From IMG/VR virus record IMGVR_UViG_3300028171_000090, positions 159,017 to 223,016 of that record: a DNA stretch of 64,000 bases; one strand, 5' to 3'. Within the stretch, counting starts at the first letter, position 1. Each line of letters opens with the position of its first letter. The notes below the pieces were generated by a model. That model was not told the DNA's origin. It was given only the letters and a program-made list of their open reading frames with translations, and did not search any database. Positions 7,862 through 64,000 of the stretch are shown piece after piece. Origin of the DNA: a virus (Duplodnaviria; Caudoviricetes). Both the position numbers and the translations under genes were made by a program.

Positions 7862-9496
7862 GTGGCAAAAGCTAAACGTTGTCCTAACTGTACGAGCACG
7901 TACCCAGAAATTGATGATTTATATGAGCACATAGAAGATAAACATTCAGACGCAATTCCGAAGGGAATGTCTGCTGGTCAATACTTCTACTTTACAAAAT
8001 ATCACCGTAGAAGTGGTCAGTGTGTAGTATGCTCAAAAGAAACACCTTGGAATGATAGTACGAATAAACCGTACAGAATATGTAGTCCAATCTGTCGTAA
8101 AACATACCGTGAGAACTTCTTAAATAATATGAGACGAGTACACGGTAAAGACCATCTATTAGATGACCCTGAAGTACAGAAGAAGATGTTATCAAAACGT
8201 TCTATCTCAGGGGAGTACCAATGGTCAAATGGTGCTCGTAAGGGTTATGTCGGCTCTTACGAAAAAGACTTTTTACGTTTCCTAGATATCTTTATGGGAT
8301 TTGAACCAGATGATATCCATGCTCCAGCACCTCAGATTATTGAATATGAGTATGAAGGTAAAAAGCACTTCTATATTCCTGACTTCTACATCGAGAGTAT
8401 CAATACAATCGTAGAGATTAAAGATGGTGGAGATAATCCAAATACTCACCATAAGATTCAGGATGTGGATAAAGAGAAGGAGAAAGCAAAAGACGAAGCA
8501 TTATCTAAAACTGGTCAATACAATTACATCAAGATTGTAAATAAACAGTATGCTTCCTTCATCAAGTTCCTATTAGAATTACGTAATAGTGACCAAGATG
8601 GAAAACGACGAGAAGTATTTCATCCTGTCGTAATGATTAACGAGAATGTACAAGCGTTGCAAGAAAGCGTTGTAGCTCAAAAGGATTTATTCCTAGCAAT
8701 CGTAAAACAGAATGTGCCAGGATTATCTGAAGAAGAATGTGGATGGTCAATCTGGTTCTCATTCGATTGTACATTTGACACAGTATATAAATCGTATCCA
8801 ACTACTGATATGGTTGGAGATAAAACATATGCTTGTGCGAAATTTACTACGGTAGATAAGAGTGCTGTTATTGGTGATGCTAGTTTCAATATCATGAAAC
8901 TAAAACAACCAGCATCATTAGACACTCTTTATAAGAAAGTGCAGATGCATATGAATGAACCAATGTTCTATTCTACCGAAGGTGGGTCTATACCTGGATT
9001 AGATATCATTTGGTTATTCGATGATATGCAAGGTGGTCGCTGTTTTGACCATACCGAGAAAAACATTACAAGTTGCAGTCAATTGATTAATGAATTAAGT
9101 CCAGCGTTCCAGTATCTTATGACGGTACCGAACTTAAATACATTTGACTACAATAAGTTCTTGCAAGCAGAATGTTCTGTAATTTCTGAATCAGTCATGA
9201 ACATGAATATCGATGAGCTGTACGAGACCTTTATAGGTACACCTGAACAGACTCTATTGGAATCTGATTATGAAGCAATGACTGCACCTGCACCAGAGGA
9301 AGCAGATCACTACGATTCACGTATTGATGAATATGAAAACTATATGGATCATATCGGTAAAACTTCTGGTATGGAACACCTTCATCGTTTAGGTGCTAAA
9401 ATTAAGAATGAGTTCACTGGTTCTGACAATCAACGTGAAGCTCTTATAAGAAGATTGGCTCACCGTAAACAACAATTGGTGAAGGTTAAAAGTTAA
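7862..9496 (+). CDS. Zinc-finger + TnsA-like PD-(D/E)XK nuclease (head-completion nuclease-like) with long C-terminal extension
   Basis: CPNC...HIEDKH, CVVC...CSPIC, YIPDFYIESINTIVEIKDG. Late-type promoter AACAACTAATTA upstream. Confidence 0.65.
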   Translation: MAKAKRCPNCTSTYPEIDDLYEHIEDKHSDAIPKGMSAGQYFYFTKYHRRSGQCVVCSKETPWNDSTNKPYRICSPICRKTYRENFLNNMRRVHGKDHLLDDPEVQKKMLSKRSISGEYQWSNGARKGYVGSYEKDFLRFLDIFMGFEPDDIHAPAPQIIEYEYEGKKHFYIPDFYIESINTIVEIKDGGDNPNTHHKIQDVDKEKEKAKDEALSKTGQYNYIKIVNKQYASFIKFLLELRNSDQDGKRREVFHPVVMINENVQALQESVVAQKDLFLAIVKQNVPGLSEEECGWSIWFSFDCTFDTVYKSYPTTDMVGDKTYACAKFTTVDKSAVIGDASFNIMKLKQPASLDTLYKKVQMHMNEPMFYSTEGGSIPGLDIIWLFDDMQGGRCFDHTEKNITSCSQLINELSPAFQYLMTVPNLNTFDYNKFLQAECSVISESVMNMNIDELYETFIGTPEQTLLESDYEAMTAPAPEEADHYDSRIDEYENYMDHIGKTSGMEHLHRLGAKIKNEFTGSDNQREALIRRLAHRKQQLVKVKS

Positions 9497-52088: not shown

Positions 52089-55000
52089 ATGATTAAAATA
52101 CAGGACATGACGAATTTAAAACTGTATCGTAACGCTAAAATTAATTTGCGTACGGATGCACAAGACCCACTCCGTGACCAATTATTCTACTTGAACTCAG
52201 GTACAGTTGAAGACAGTATTGATATGATGAATAATTTTCGTTTCCAAAATAAGCAAACGTTTAAAGCATATCATATCGACCATATATACAGACTGAAGTT
52301 CTTTGGTCACACTACAAATACAATTTTCCATACGAAAGCCGTTTATGACAGAATACGTCAAGGAGCTTTCGGTATTAAAAAGACTTTTCTTGATAAAGAG
52401 TCTTATCGTCGCGATAACTTATTTGCAGAACTATTTAAGTACAATGAATTCTTCTATAAAGATGCCGAGTCATCTCAAGCAAGAGGAGACCGTTTAATCG
52501 GCGCGTACTTAGAAATGTTACAGCAAGTGGATGCTGAATATGCACCATTCTATAATCAACGTACAATGATTATTGATTTAGAGCAATGGGATGTAGACTT
52601 AAAGTCTCAAAGCGTATATCGTTATACAGCAGCAAGTAATCCATTTGAATTAGTAATACACATGATGGAACGATTCCCAATGGAGTTCCAGCAATTAGGA
52701 TTCGATATCCTATTAGTAGATGGTATGACAGCGATTCGTATTATTCCGAATCAATGTGATAAAACATCTTACAGTATGTTACGCAGCTCATTGATCCGTG
52801 TGGATCAAGTACGTCAACAAGCAAGACGTAGTCGTCCAGCTTATGTTGAGAAAATGAAGAAGGCTGTTAGTGTAACTGAGAATGATGCAAAAGAAACATT
52901 AACATCCGAGATTACTTCTGAAATCAAATCAGGATTAGAGCAAGGTGGTATTACTCGATTCTCCTTTGCTGGAGATGAAGTAGAACGTGAGATTCCTGAA
53001 GACGTTCAGAAGAAAGTACAAGAAGCCGTAGATAAAGCTATGGAAGATAAAGAAGACCTTGATGACGAAGAGATTGAAGCTCTGAAAGCAAAAGTCAAAG
53101 AGGAAATGGATGAAGATAAAGAATTGGTGAAAATGGTAGAGTTAAGTAAAACTGACCGTATCACAAACGTTATGTCAAATAGTAATATTAAACGTAACAA
53201 GATGCTGGCAGAGAAACAAGCTTCTCTTAAAGTGAATAGCCAAGGTAAAACAATCGACCAAATCTTAGAAGAAACAAAAGAAAAGACATTAACTCCTAAG
53301 AAGTTAAAGGTTGATACCATTAATAAGAAGATGCAAGAGTTAACGCTTCCTAACTTTGAGAAAGAATATAATACGAAGTTAATGGAAAAAGACACGTTAA
53401 TGATTCTAAACTTCTTTAAAGACCGTTCTATCCCTGTCTATATCTTAGACATTAAAAAGGAAGATACGTCTGACCAGTTTAATAAGAAAGTTACGTATAC
53501 GGTTAAAATGGAAAGTGCTGACCGTGAACGTCATACGATAAAATTTGATTTACCAAAATTTACAAATGAGCAATTCTTATTCTTAAATGGTAATAAGAAA
53601 TCGCTTGTCAAGCAGTTATTCCTAAAACCGGTATCCAAAACGGGTCCAGATGAAGTTCAGATTTGTACCAACTACAATAAGATATTCATGACTCGTATCG
53701 GGAATAAACTATCTCCAAAAGTAGAACGTATTAAGAAAGGTCTTAATGAGTATAAAGGGAAGACTATTCAAGTACGTGATGGGGATAATCGTCTAGCAAA
53801 CTCTGATTATAAAACAACGATCGAGTATGATGAACTTGGTTCTAACTATATGGATCTTGCTATTGGTAATACTCATATTCACTTTAACCAAGATGAGATT
53901 CGTAAATTCTTGAAATCCAAGAAAGTAAATTTAAAAGTAAATGATGATATCTTACCAATTGGTTATGTATTAAGCGGTACGGCTGTGAAAGAAGTTATCT
54001 ACTTAGATACAGTAAAAGACCGTATTATTGACCATAATAAATCAGTGGCTGATTTTATCATTGATAGTGTAGAAGCAACACGTCCTGGATTTAAAGAAGA
54101 TATCAATAAATTCAGTGTCGGTAAACGTTACCTATACACAAAAGTAAAAGTTATGAATAAGAACGTTCCATTGATTCTATTCTTAGCTTACTTAGAAGGA
54201 TTAACAAAGACGATGCAGAAAGCTGGTATCAACTATACATTCTCTGATACACGAGTGGTCTTAAAAGGTCAAGATAAGATTGATAAAGAAATCATTGCAT
54301 TTGCAGATGGTTACTTAATCTATGACCGTTATCCAACTCGTAATTCATTACTAATGAATGCAATGAGTATCGTGAATACAAAAGACTATAACTATTCAGA
54401 TTTCGATAGTAAAGATGTATACTTAGAAATCTTCCAAAACTTATTAGGCGTTCGTATGATTGCTAATGCCTTCGACAACTTCTATGACTTATTAATCGAC
54501 CCGATTACAAAAGAAGTATTAGAAGACTTGCAAATGCCAACAGACTTTGTAGAGCTATTATTATATGCAAATAGTCTATTGGAAGATAACGTTTATACAA
54601 AAGAAAATGATTTAGCTCTATATCGTATTCGAAGCAATGAGTTAGTAAATGCTTATTTATATAGCTCATTAGCGAAAGCATACGAACGTTACCGTATGAC
54701 AGCAGGAAATAAGACTCCTGTTAAAATGAGTATCCCTCAGGATGATGTCATTAAGAGTATGGTAATGAGTCCAATTGTAGAGGACTATAGTACATTAAAT
54801 CCAATATCAGAGGCAGAGAAATTACGTACTGTCGGATATAAAGGATTGAGTGGGATGAACGTGGATAGAGCCTTCACACTATCTAAACGTGCCTATGATA
54901 AGAGTATGAAAGGTATCTTATGTATGAGTACCAATCCATCAGGTGCAGTAGGTATTACCCGTGAGTTAGCACTGGATGCAAATATCTTATCACCACGTGG

Positions 55001-56009
55001 TTATTTAAAAATGGCTGATAAAGATTCTGACTTAACGTCTACGAATCTATTTGGTGTATCTGAATTACTTGTACCAATGTGTGCACAGAAAGATGACTCA
55101 CCTCGTACAGCCATGAACTACGTTCAGAATAAACATATCATGCCATGTAGAAAGTATGATCCATTACTTGTAGGTAACGGTTCAGAAAAAGCATTGGCAC
55201 ATATCATCTCCGATGACTTTGTATTCAAAGCAAAAGATGATGGTAAAGTTATGGAAGTAGATGAAGAATTAAATACCATTGTTGTAAAATATAAGAACGG
55301 TGAATTCGATGTTATCGAAACTGGTTCTAAGGTATCGAAGAACTCTGGTGGTGGATTCTTTATCTCTAATAAACTAGAGTCAAAACTAAAAAAGGGTGAT
55401 TCATTTAAGAAAGATGATTTCCTAGCAATGAATACACAATTCTTTAATGAAGACCAAGATAGTGGCGCTACGTATAAATTAGGTACGATGGCGAAAGTTG
55501 CTATCATGAGTGGTTATTACACATATGAGGATAGTGTTATGATTACCGAAAAACTTTGCGATGATATGACAACGAACGTTATCGTAAAGAAAGATGTCGT
55601 ATTAGGACCTAACTCTAACATTGGTTATATGGTAGAAAAAGGGCAAGCGATTGAAGTTGGACAACCTTTATTAATCTTCGATAACTCGTATGAGGATGAA
55701 GGGATGAATAAAGTATTAGCAGCAATGGATGAAGAATTGTCTGCTGAGATATCCAAACTAAGTAAGATACCTGTTAAGTCCAAATATAGTGGAGTCATTG
55801 AAGATATTAAAGTCTACATCACTGTAGATGAATCTGAATTATCTCCAAGTATTAGACAAATTATTAAAAAGATTAACGCTCCTGTTATTAAGAAAGGAAA
55901 GTTAATTGGTAAGCATACTGATGTAACGAAAACGGATATTAGTACATATCCAGTTACAAAGACAGAAACAGCTAACGGTAAGATTAAAGGTGTGGAAGTC
56001 GGAGAGGGT
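52089..56009 (+). CDS. Phage RNA polymerase beta subunit, exon 1 (1307 aa; spliced product 1396 aa)
   Basis: KPVSKTGPDEVQ, GILCMSTNPSGAVGITREL, DDSPRTAMNYVQNKH, AKVAIMSGYYTYEDS. The ORF-track tail KSIALYKSL is intron read-through. Confidence 0.9.
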
Positions 56010-56241
56010 AAAAGTATTGCTCTCTATAAATCTCTCTAATTGCTGGGAACTCTCACTGAGACAATCAGCAGCGAAGCCTTTAAATAGGAACGTTCAACGA
56101 CTATTCCGAAAGGAAGTAGGACACAAGCGTGTTCGAAACGGGAGACACTCGTTAGAGTGAAGATATAGTCTAGTCTGCATGGTGACATGTAGAAGTTCAT
56201 AAGAGAACTGGTTCAGTGTAGCGAACTGAATTGAATATACG
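56010..56241 (+). mobile_element. Group I intron 1 (232 nt, ORF-less, IA2-like)
   Basis: 5' exon ends GGAGAGGGU and pairs with IGS GCUCUCU (U.G). P/Q elements AAUUGCUGGGAA and AAUCAGCAG, R element UCAACGACUA, P7.1/P7.2 hairpins, S element AAGAUAUAGUCU, terminal G. AGUAU pairs with exon 2 GUACU (P10). Confidence 0.9.
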
Positions 56242-56313: not shown

Positions 56314-57361
56314 GGGTAACAGGGTCCTTTATCTGGTGACAGATATCGAAAACTCCTTTAATTGCTGGGACATCTTACCGAGACAATCAGCAGCCAAGCA
56401 TTATCATGTATAATTCTATAACATTACAACACCTTTATAAGAGGTGAATGATTATGAGAAAAACTGAAATATTTAAACTAATTACATTACCTGATATAAA
56501 ACCTAGATATTGGGTTAGTAACATGGGAAGAGTTTATAATAGCAAATCTAAAAAGTATCTTAAAGGTAGTCCTGATAAAGATGGGTATATTAGGGTTAAT
56601 TTAACTAAATTTAATGGAAAAAAGAAAACTCTTAGAGTGCATCGATTAGTAGCTATTTATTTTATTAAAATTAAGAGACCTGATCAAGATCAAGTTAATC
56701 ATAAAGATGGTGTAGTTTCTAATAACGATCGTTCTAATTTAGAATGGTGTACTAATGAAGAGAATAAAGACCATTCTATTAGAACCGGGTTACGGTGGTA
56801 TCATAAAGGTGAAGATGTATCACATTCATTTTTTACTAATGATCAAGTGCATCTAATATGTAAGATGCTTGAAAAAGGCAACTCTTATAAACAAATAGCT
56901 AAAAAATTAGATTTAAAGTTTAATGAAAATTTAGTTAAACTATTATATACAATAAAAAGTGGTTCATCGTGGAATCATATATCAAAAGATTATAATATAC
57001 CTAAAAAATCTATGAATCAGGTATTTACTAAAGATGACATACACAGATTCTGTCAATTGATGGAACAAGGGTATGGTAATACTGAGATTGCTAAATTAAC
57101 TACGGGCGTATTAGATATTCCTAAAAATAAAATTATAGGAACTTTAAATCAGATACGTTTTAGAAGATGTCATAAAAATATTTCTAAAAATTATACATGG
57201 TAAATGAAGGTTCAACGACTATTCCGAAAGGAAGTAGGGTGCAAGCGCATTCGAAATGGGGAGCATCTCATAGAGATGAAGATATAGTCTAGTCTGCATG
57301 GTGACATGTAGAAGTTCATAAGAGAACTGGTTCAGTGTAGCGAACTGAATTGAATGTTTCG
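56314..57361 (+). mobile_element. Group I intron 2 (1048 nt) with HNH ORF in the P6 loop
   Basis: AAUUGCUGGGAC, AAUCAGCAG, GUUCAACGACUA, AAGAUAUAGUCU and a terminal G before TTA AAA GGT. Splicing restores GDKLTFFTA-LKGIV. Confidence 0.88.
56454..57203 (+). CDS. Intron-encoded NUMOD4-HNH homing endonuclease (I-HmuI-like)
   Basis: YWVSNMGRV (NUMOD4), VHRLVA..VNHKDG..NNDRSNLEWCTNEENKDH (HNH), two C-terminal HTH-like repeats. GAGGTG RBS and own AACACCTTTATA promoter (56428-56439). Confidence 0.92.
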   Translation: MRKTEIFKLITLPDIKPRYWVSNMGRVYNSKSKKYLKGSPDKDGYIRVNLTKFNGKKKTLRVHRLVAIYFIKIKRPDQDQVNHKDGVVSNNDRSNLEWCTNEENKDHSIRTGLRWYHKGEDVSHSFFTNDQVHLICKMLEKGNSYKQIAKKLDLKFNENLVKLLYTIKSGSSWNHISKDYNIPKKSMNQVFTKDDIHRFCQLMEQGYGNTEIAKLTTGVLDIPKNKIIGTLNQIRFRRCHKNISKNYTW

Positions 57362-61909: not shown

Positions 61910-61993
61910 GACATATGTCCTATACTTTTCTTTATTATTATTAAAATTAATCTATTTTATAATAATAAGTTACTACACGTCTAACATAGTAAT

Positions 61994-62290
61994 GAGATAG
62001 ACCCACCAGAGAGACAGAGAGGCTAGGAGATTGTAATATTAATCTTCTACCTCTCTGGTGGGGTATCATCGGAGGCGGGTGGGAATAGATAAGTGTTACC
62101 CGAACCGAAGGGAAGGGGAACATGCACTAGAAGAAAGAAGTGCGGTCCTCCCCGAAAGGGGGAGGGCGCTTTAAAGTTAGAATAATAGACACGAGAGAGG
62201 GAGACGAAGCTCTGAGAGGTGAGAGGAGCGAGAGCCCCGGGAACCCGAAAGGGAGAGGAGGTTCCGCCGAGGAACTACAGCACTTTCTCT
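61994..62290 (+). ncRNA. Putative GC-rich structured non-coding RNA
   Basis: Promoter AACATAGTAATG (61983-61994). 12-bp stem CCCACCAGAGAG/CTCTCTGGTGGG, GAAA-capped hairpins near 62150 and 62244-62253, no ORF. Confidence 0.55.
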
Positions 62291-62338
62291 AAATACAGTC
62301 AAAATCTCTTAGATTTTATATAGTTTTACAATCTTTCT

Positions 62339-63982
62339 AACAGTGTATTAGGGTACTGGTAAAGGTCCCTATGCAAATTTATTACTTGAAAGAGAAATAG
62401 ATTCTATACAAACTAAAAACTTTCATTCCAACATTTTTAGTAAACCTTTTCAGAATCTATTATCTCTAGACTATGCATCCGACTATACCTTAATTGGTAT
62501 AGTCAATTTTATTTTAATATATAACTAACATATAATTACATAAGTGTCTATGTGTAAATTCTTGTGTGAAACGAATGTTATTATTAAACCCTTAATAAAT
62601 TTCATAGACTATGCCGAGTATAACCTCTCCCAGGTTATACTCATTATTTTTTAATATTATGCTAACATTTTACTAATCTAAACATCATTTGCTTCATAGC
62701 AAATTACCTCATAGATTATGCCGACCATCACTTCCCCTAGGAGTGATGGTTAATTATTTTTTATTATTACTATAACATAATAATAACCTTAATAGGATAA
62801 GATTACCCACATAATCTTATAACAATTGCTTACACAAACCTGTAAGACTATGCCGACTAATACCTCCGGGTATTAGTCATTTTATTTTTATACATAAGCA
62901 ACATTATTATAACCGTGATAACCTCAAATATTCATGGTCTTACTCGTGATATGAATTTTGTCATTTTATAAGTTTCTTAGCTTATGAGACTACGCTGGTC
63001 AAAACGAGGCATCAATTTTTCCAAATTGATTTGCTTTCCTTCCGTTGGGAATTACCAACTAAATTCCATATAAGGGTCCTGACTATGCACGAAGAAGCCA
63101 CCGTTTGGCTTCTTCACTATTTTACGTCATTTTATATTTTAATATAAAGATAACAAAGTATTAGGTTGCGTAACAATACTGGAGCGTAACCGAGACACAA
63201 GCTGGTATCTGTTGATTCATTCGAACGACGGTACTCCTGATATAATTTATTATGTATTTAAGACTATGCAGACCATACCTTCGGGTATGGTCACTATTAT
63301 TTTCTATCTTAGTAACATTATTATAAGACTTAGTTCTGTTTGTGTTTGTTGATATTTTTCAAATATCACGGAAAGAACTCCATTTATAGACTATGCTCCT
63401 TTCAAATTTTAATGTTTATTATTTTTGTAGTTTTAGGGAGACTATGAAGAGTACAACCTTAGCGGGTTGTACTCATTTTATTTTATTGTAATAACATATT
63501 ATTAGTGGACTAGCGCCACAGTGATTCTATTTGGTGTATTTAAGACTATGCCCTTCGTTTATAAAAGTACTTAGATGAAAAATACCAGTAGATTATGCAG
63601 AGTATAACCTTAACGGGTTATACTCAAATTTATTTTTAATATCGCTATAACATAATAGTATGAGAGTGAGTATCTCATATATTCAAAAGTGTTTATAGAC
63701 TAAGCCTATCGATTTCAATGATAAACTAAACCCTACTATTTATTTATCATTACAGAAGAACCCAGAGAGGTTCTTCCCTTTCTTTTGTCGTTTATGATAA
63801 AGTTTTACTAAGTAGGTAACATATTATTAGTTGATGTATGATGGTAACAAACGCGATACTTCATTTCCTTTTGAATCTAGACTACGTGAAGATTTTTACC
63901 TAACTGAATGATGATTACTACTACTTTTTTACACATAAAATCCATCACCAACTACTGAGTATAACCTTAACGGGTTATACTC
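62339..63982 (+). ncRNA. Tandem array of >=10 small-RNA transcription units sharing an AGACTATGC motif
   Basis: 10 AACA-N6-TA promoters, 13 AGACTATGC-like motifs and 10 terminator hairpins with T tails, in repeating order. No ORFs on +. Confidence 0.8.
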
Positions 63983-64000
63983 CTTTATTTTATTTTTTAC

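Follow-up and report, generated by a model that had tools for sequence, protein, structure and literature searches.

A nine-letter word within and at the ends of late non-coding transcription units of an AR9-like jumbo phage: a candidate RNA tag

In an uncultured soil giant phage, an AR9-like jumbo, about 30 copies of a nine-letter box (consensus AGAYTAYGC) lie inside promoter-to-terminator units, all of them on the sense strand, and about half of those in its arrays are found in mid-transcript. The box is enriched in these units, is independent of their terminators and promoters, is conserved at its internal sites and is replaced by another word in a distant clade. The explanation that we tentatively favor, holding it somewhat short of probable, is that AGAYUAYGC acts as an RNA tag: it would mark where each module of these late non-coding RNAs ends on its 3′ side, and a factor evolving in step with the phage clade would recognize it by sequence. 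The reader would most likely be a phage RNA-binding protein or endoribonuclease. A single-box cassette would then consist of one module (a variable body and its box) closed directly by a terminator, and a two-segment cassette would be a single transcription unit formed by two stacked modules or by one module with a box-less tail. The internal box would do the same job as the terminal one, be it binding or cutting, and that job would not be termination. That cutting alone takes place at the box seems rather unlikely.

The DNA analysed here, a 64-kb stretch referred to as the window, is the final part of a 223,016-base IMG/VR record estimated to be about 90% complete. The nearest cultured relatives of the phage are the AR9/PBS1 group, Staphylococcus phage S6 and Listeria phage LPJP1, at 31–41% identity. 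The phage encodes its own multisubunit RNA polymerase, as a 1316-codon ORF (52089–56039) matches the phage RNAP beta subunit. A group I intron lies at the 3′ end of this ORF (56000–56192, 98 bits) and is followed by an HNH homing-endonuclease ORF (56448–57203); the intron is the sole match at the gathering threshold in an Rfam 15 scan of the window. The box-bearing array fills the end of the window and continues beyond it. A contig from a different sample (L030), identical to the window over the last 2.1 kb of the latter, carries three further cassettes at its positions 8340–9050, about 760 nt more of array, and then the next gene. Several independent assemblies (this record and the starts of contigs L169 and L170) stop within one repeated array terminator hairpin, at window positions 63957–64000, so the end of the record is an assembly break and not the end of the genome. 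A second array is located on the minus strand at 26.8–28.2 kb of the genome, and two lone units at about 114.3 kb and 1.3 kb carry the remaining boxes. The second array adjoins a phage polyphosphate kinase gene (genome 25563–26783; contig L001 49–1269), recognized by its PPK C-terminal domains (E = 7e-73).

The array within the window is organized as follows (window coordinates, all on the plus strand):

61983..61994 (+), late-type promoter of the first array unit, AACA-N6-TG; kept in 5/5 sister loci, where the upstream AATAA(A/G)TTACTA is invariant
61994..62296 (+), lead RNA of about 300 nt, GC- and purine-rich, structured; heads the array in every sister phage
62339..62504 (+), c1, single box: promoter 62339–62350, box 62468–62476, terminator 62481–62504; two-box in L036/L037
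62527..62642 (+), c2, single box: box 62606–62614, terminator 62616–62642
62664..62751 (+), c3, single box: box 62713–62721 (AGATTATGC), terminator 62723–62751; two-box in L036/L037
62774..62878 (+), c4, single box: box 62845–62853, terminator 62855–62878
62900..63115 (+), c5, two segments: promoter 62900–62911, internal box 62987–62995, terminal box 63080–63088, terminator 63091–63115
63152..63292 (+), c6, single box: box 63261–63269, terminator 63271–63292
63314..63474 (+), c7, two segments: promoter 63314–63325, internal box 63388–63396, terminal box 63439–63447, terminator 63449–63474
63493..63625 (+), c8, two segments: promoter 63493–63504, internal box 63543–63551, terminal box 63590–63598, terminator 63600–63625
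63649..63776 (+), c9: promoter 63649–63660, internal box 63697–63705, second segment, box-less terminator 63755–63776
63818..63982 (+), c10: promoter 63818–63829, internal box 63879–63887, second segment, box-less terminator 63957–63982

The RNA bodies of the cassettes are mutually unrelated and have only promoter, box and terminator style in common. The lead RNA contains GNRA-type loops, and its consensus fold includes 11 base pairs that are changed on both sides; it is kept in all the sister phages that we reached via flanking proteins (L036, L037, L038, L040, L150 and L168). Neither the lead RNA nor the array corresponds to an Rfam family, either at the gathering threshold or at E up to 10, where the array gives noise at E above 1.

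An initial annotation of the window had singled out c5 and c7–c10 as cassettes with a motif in mid-transcript, and it placed every one of their elements correctly: the five promoters, the internal motif of each cassette, the three second motifs and the two terminators that lack a box. The internal boxes read AGACTACGC at 62987, AGACTATGC at both 63388 and 63543, AGACTAAGC at 63697 and AGACTACGT at 63879, with 0–2 mismatches to AGACTATGC and 0–1 to the degenerate consensus. The second, terminal boxes of c5, c7 and c8 read TGACTATGC (63080), AGACTATGA (63439) and AGATTATGC (63590) and end 1–2 nt before the terminator stems. In the single-box cassettes the gap between box and stem measures 1–4 nt, the very spacing that had been proposed for them. 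The proposed absence of a terminator behind the internal copies also holds, since the best hairpin starting 0–4 nt after each has a folding energy of −2.6 kcal/mol or weaker. For c9 and c10 only five-letter cores occur 1 nt before the stems (ATTAC at 63749–63753 and ACTAC at 63951–63955), and these were noticed post hoc. Segments are 37–154 nt long, the second ones of c7 and c8 being 42 and 38 nt.

What do these cassettes share with the transcription program of AR9? Words of the form AACA-N6-TA begin exactly at 62900, 63314, 63493, 63649 and 63818, and AACA-N6-TA/G is the late-promoter consensus of the AR9 non-virion RNA polymerase (PMC5312081). AACA-N6-TA is also present upstream of many protein genes of the window phage, at leader distance. 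AR9-like early promoters (ATATATATTAT-N6-G) occur separately in the genome, one of them directly after the array. The box matches neither ATATATATTAT-N6-G nor AACA-N6-TA/G and was discarded as an early or late promoter of AR9 type; with both promoter classes found separately in the genome, the box belongs to neither. An early-type promoter word (ATATATCTTAT-N6-G) is situated inside the second array at genome position 27236 on the minus strand, before a stretch that has boxes and lacks a late promoter, and some units may thus be made early. In AR9 itself, late start sites were mapped before annotated genes (PMC5312081), whereas a box-bearing non-coding array is described neither in that transcriptome paper nor in the publications covered by a full-text literature search.

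The concentration of the box in the arrays is well above chance. Allowing one mismatch at most, the window holds 25 matches against 13.5 ± 3.6 in shuffled sequences, none of 100 shuffles reaching 25, and 12 of the 25 are within the last 1.6 kb, all on the plus strand. The two arrays together contain 15 internal and 13 terminal boxes by manual listing, with which an automatic tally agrees, so that internal copies are the rule and not the exception. In all 28 boxes, internal and terminal alike, G2, A3, T5, A6 and G8 are present. The proximity of the terminal copies to terminator stems could suggest an accessory of intrinsic termination. As a control, hairpin-plus-T-run terminators were collected and the box was sought within 16 nt upstream: it precedes 0 of 85 terminators outside the arrays and 9 of 15 inside, although the terminator stem style of the arrays is common to the whole genome. 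This led to rejection of the accessory and makes the box specific to the array RNAs and no part of the termination signal.

Hairpins other than terminators do tend to follow the internal copies. Taking all the phages, 43% of internal boxes and 15% of random positions have a hairpin of −4 kcal/mol or stronger starting 0–4 nt downstream (Mann-Whitney p = 0.004). The five internal boxes of c5 and c7–c10 lack such a hairpin, so “box plus hairpin” describes a tendency that individual boxes need not follow. In predicted accessibility the box is unremarkable (0.44 against 0.42). An 8–9-nt single-stranded box with a hairpin within a few nucleotides on nascent RNA recalls the lambda nut site (boxA and boxB hairpin). 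Differently to nut, the hairpins here are variable and mostly terminators, and dozens of copies stand at unit ends instead of one near the promoter. A nut-type antitermination site was rejected, as the hairpins after the box vary in both stem and loop sequence.

The sister phages place the box in an evolutionary frame. The closest, L168, is about 96% identical, has the full array and keeps all five internal boxes. Four box substitutions separate it from the window phage, each of which either exchanges C and T at position 4 or brings position 9 to the consensus; the terminal box of c7 reads AGACTATGC in L168, and c5 is unchanged. L036 and L037 are more distant (87% DNA identity in the RNAP gene). 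Between the window and L036, c5 is 91% identical, as is c6, and both c5 boxes read AGATTACGC in L036. In L036/L037, c1 and c3 each possess an extra module of segment, box and small hairpin that is absent in the window, so that modules come and go as whole units. The distant clade of L038, L040 and L150 shares the synteny and the lead RNA and uses TTACTAYA as its box, both before terminators and in mid-transcript. One of its transcripts contains four such boxes, and at least one cassette of the L038 clade is orthologous to a window cassette yet carries the TTACTAYA box. This single concerted switch, internal and terminal together, is the main argument for a specific reader and for the internal copies being read too. 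As the relatives show only two box types, the argument for co-evolution rests on one switch. Words resembling TTACTAC, the box of the other clade, are also seen in the window, in the second segment of c10 (63917–63923) and in the invariant stretch upstream of the lead RNA promoter (61975–61981); they may be due to chance or be remnants of an older box type.

These comparisons also bear on whether the internal copies work at all. It is conceivable that neighboring cassettes fused upon loss of a terminator and the next promoter, leaving an idle internal box as a relic. Near relatives do differ by the gain or loss of modules, c7 and c8 have short (42 and 38 nt), AT-rich second segments that resemble decayed spacers, and the five internal boxes here have no hairpin behind them. 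However, internal boxes, 15 of them in this phage, are as conserved as terminal ones at every invariant position, and both L168 and L036 retain them. The distant clade has its own box at internal sites too, for which relics would need continued selection or conversion after the switch. We consider relics very improbable. The internal half of the copies, the 0/85 control, the shared invariant positions, the conservation in L168 and the replacement of the box between clades all speak for a functional element separate from termination, in agreement with what the initial annotation had deduced from the internal motifs.

Additional sister arrays proved scarce. A metagenome scan with the lead-RNA motif gave mostly chance hairpins, and the real cases were L059 (a strain variant), L095 (identical to the L038 contig) and L150 (of L038 type). 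Scanning viral contigs for the box-plus-stem pattern returned only chance matches and a coding KDYA-type repeat, and protein-anchored loci in viral contigs were either not found or were without an array.

If the box is a tag on RNA, as we favor, what reads it? Among the conserved neighbor genes scanned, a search for RNA-binding and RNase families returned none but RNase H, plus one sub-threshold Nudix-like match; a reverse transcriptase, one of the possible partners named at the outset, was likewise not found among these neighbors. Duplex energies between the box and the lead RNA are no better than for shuffled boxes, and anti-boxes within the same transcript do not exceed controls (p = 0.43). 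Anti-Shine-Dalgarno words in the segments are in no clear excess, with 15 in 2.45 kb (sense strand of array B) compared with 4.7 per kb in the genome. The box can also pair over six letters with a conserved stretch of 16S rRNA, which we dismissed as chance-level. The array stretch is contained in 24 soil metatranscriptome runs, as contigs, in which RNA ends are not visible. These contigs bridge every internal box and break mostly at hairpins; one of them is 242,788 bases long, and DNA carry-over is possible. In run X3 positions 62009–62095 are uncovered, which was not taken as evidence. That the reader acts on RNA and not on DNA, that it is a protein and that it cuts are inferences.

Pairing with another RNA offers a different way of reading the box. 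It could be the shared seed of sibling regulatory sRNAs that pair with one complementary target, a host RNA or a phage RNA outside the record, an internal copy simply giving an RNA two seeds. A promoter of its own, a short conserved single-stranded motif and a terminator are the architecture of a sibling sRNA. Within the box, most of the variation consists of C/T exchanges at positions 4 and 7, where a G in the partner would tolerate both, and a box that differs between clades is expected if the target differs. Against this, the motif and its complement occur outside the arrays at about the chance level (about 7 matches, on both strands, versus about 6.7 expected by our own base-composition estimate), and the minus-strand copy that we checked, at 202005, is in sense orientation within a minus-strand reading frame. 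The pairing searches with the lead RNA and within transcripts, which covered phage sequence only, gave nothing beyond controls, and the RNA bodies are mutually unrelated yet individually conserved, unlike those of true siblings. We regard the shared seed as quite doubtful.

The nearest known kind of RNA is the sibling sRNA family, although the array departs from it in several defining features. Examples of such families are Qrr1-5 of Vibrio, LhrC1-5 of Listeria and Yfr2 of cyanobacteria. Like the array, these consist of numerous small genes, often adjacent, that run separately from a promoter to an intrinsic terminator and have a short motif in common. Several promoter-terminator genes with a conserved motif are thus present here, but whole-body homology is absent: the bodies are unrelated and 9 letters are common, and there are about 30 copies in a virus, stackable modules and a motif that switches as a set between clades. 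Csr/Rsm sponges (CsrB, RsmZ) provide another comparison, as they also combine a short motif on non-coding RNAs with occurrences beside ribosome-binding sites. In the window phage a protein gene has a box 1 nt ahead of its ribosome-binding site (genome 98481–98489; contig L006 1501–1509), and this box is kept in sisters with 88% and 66% protein identity (L171 and L172). A near-copy adjoins the SD of a second mRNA leader (genome 2532–2540); two leader sites are near what chance would give. In contrast to the sponges, which have many motif copies per RNA, each transcript here has 1–4 boxes, the bodies are individually conserved, and no cognate binding protein was found.

Alternatively, the box could act on DNA, as the site of a strand-specific phage nuclease or DNA-binding protein that would produce a localized nick (like those of T5 and tf), a roadblock or a point at which DNA synthesis starts on the strand that transcription displaces. 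A reader at the DNA level would account equally well for the strand bias and for the change of box between clades. Pseudomonas phage tf is nicked at the consensus TACT/RTGMC, with TACTATGAC in relatives (PMC3517423), and the box core ACTATGC resembles both. This likeness was noticed post hoc, for a 9-letter word. A protein encoded near the array is relevant to this possibility:

L030 10022–10690, just past the window end: 223-residue protein (AR9 g242, phrog_12252); paralogue at genome 9123–9659 (−)

The gene is two genes after the array beside RNase H in all sisters, and the protein has an invariant HH, H133 and H148 and a near-invariant H152. A structural model built from 78 relatives reaches a pLDDT of 93 (36 when built from 5 sequences). 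Its best structural matches are the T5 nicking endonuclease SciA (9qgx_A: Z 5.5, rmsd 4.5, 113 aligned) and the GVE2 HNH endonuclease (5h0o_A: Z 5.5, rmsd 2.8, 87 aligned), with more HNH enzymes lower in the list, which suggests that the protein may be HNH-like, and a language-model search puts it close to HNH enzymes and to the family of the T5 nicking endonuclease. However, these Z values are low, there is no Pfam or PDB sequence match, and Foldseek gives nothing at E up to 0.001. In cultured phages the family is found only in AR9/PBS1-like jumbos (e.g. AR9, PBS1, phiR1-37, S6 and LPJP1), in two places per record, and is beside RNase H in AR9 and LPJP1. Yet a DNA similarity search of the phage collection revealed nothing like the array, no array was seen in the first 50 kb of LPJP1, and the paralogue in the window phage is 17 kb from the second array. 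It is thus possible that the 223-residue protein is unconnected with the box. The boxes share with the T5 (SciA) and tf interruptions a short asymmetric one-strand word, ACTATG in the case of tf, and a nearby gene for a possibly HNH-like protein. They depart from them in layout: known single-strand nick sites are dispersed over the genome, whereas the boxes, about 30 in number, are grouped in arrays at 40–150-nt spacing inside promoter-to-terminator units. A site of action on DNA appears quite doubtful, slightly more so than the shared seed.

The processing idea of the initial annotation is modelled on CRISPR pre-crRNA, in which Cas6-type cutting takes place at a short conserved element, often with a hairpin, between variable segments of multi-unit transcripts. 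Here the conserved part is 9 nt instead of 23–50, segments are 37–154 nt, structured and conserved, and most units have their own promoter and terminator. A CRISPR array was rejected: 9 nt are common, segment length is not uniform and segments are orthologous between phages (see c5 and c6 above); no cas-like gene was found among the neighbors scanned. The wording of the initial annotation, which had the motif acting as a repeat between spacers, thus fits loosely as to arrangement, but not as to the segments, which mostly have their own promoter and are conserved between sisters instead of hypervariable. An ambitious form of the favored reading, which we think unlikely, is a ribonucleoprotein system of AR9-like jumbo phages. 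About 30 late RNAs headed by the ~300-nt RNA would share the 9-nt handle, and a co-evolving phage factor would cut multi-module precursors, in a Cas6-like manner, into handle-tagged RNAs that might serve as guides, regulators or virion cargo.

A possible trace of such an island exists in AR9. At 207.9–209.0 kb (L173 9705–10800), an unannotated, ORF-free stretch of about 560 nt follows the g242 homologue and starts at a late-promoter-like word; it may be the counterpart of the RNA island here. The sole tRNA gene of AR9 comes after this stretch, also behind a late-promoter word.

To our knowledge, giant phages have hardly been explored for small RNAs. In this one, some 30 late-promoter non-coding units that share a clade-switching word take up about 2% of the 223-kb genome, and the internal copies are the key clue, as they separate the word from termination and define the working unit as “segment plus box”, a unit open to stacking, gain and loss. 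The array box is a falsifiable lead and not an established mechanism. Should a phage factor indeed bind or cut at the box, a virus that encodes its own RNA polymerases would have a novel means of producing or addressing a whole set of RNAs. Should the box prove to be a site of nicking or priming on DNA, transcription units and DNA ends would be connected in phages of the AR9/PBS1 group.
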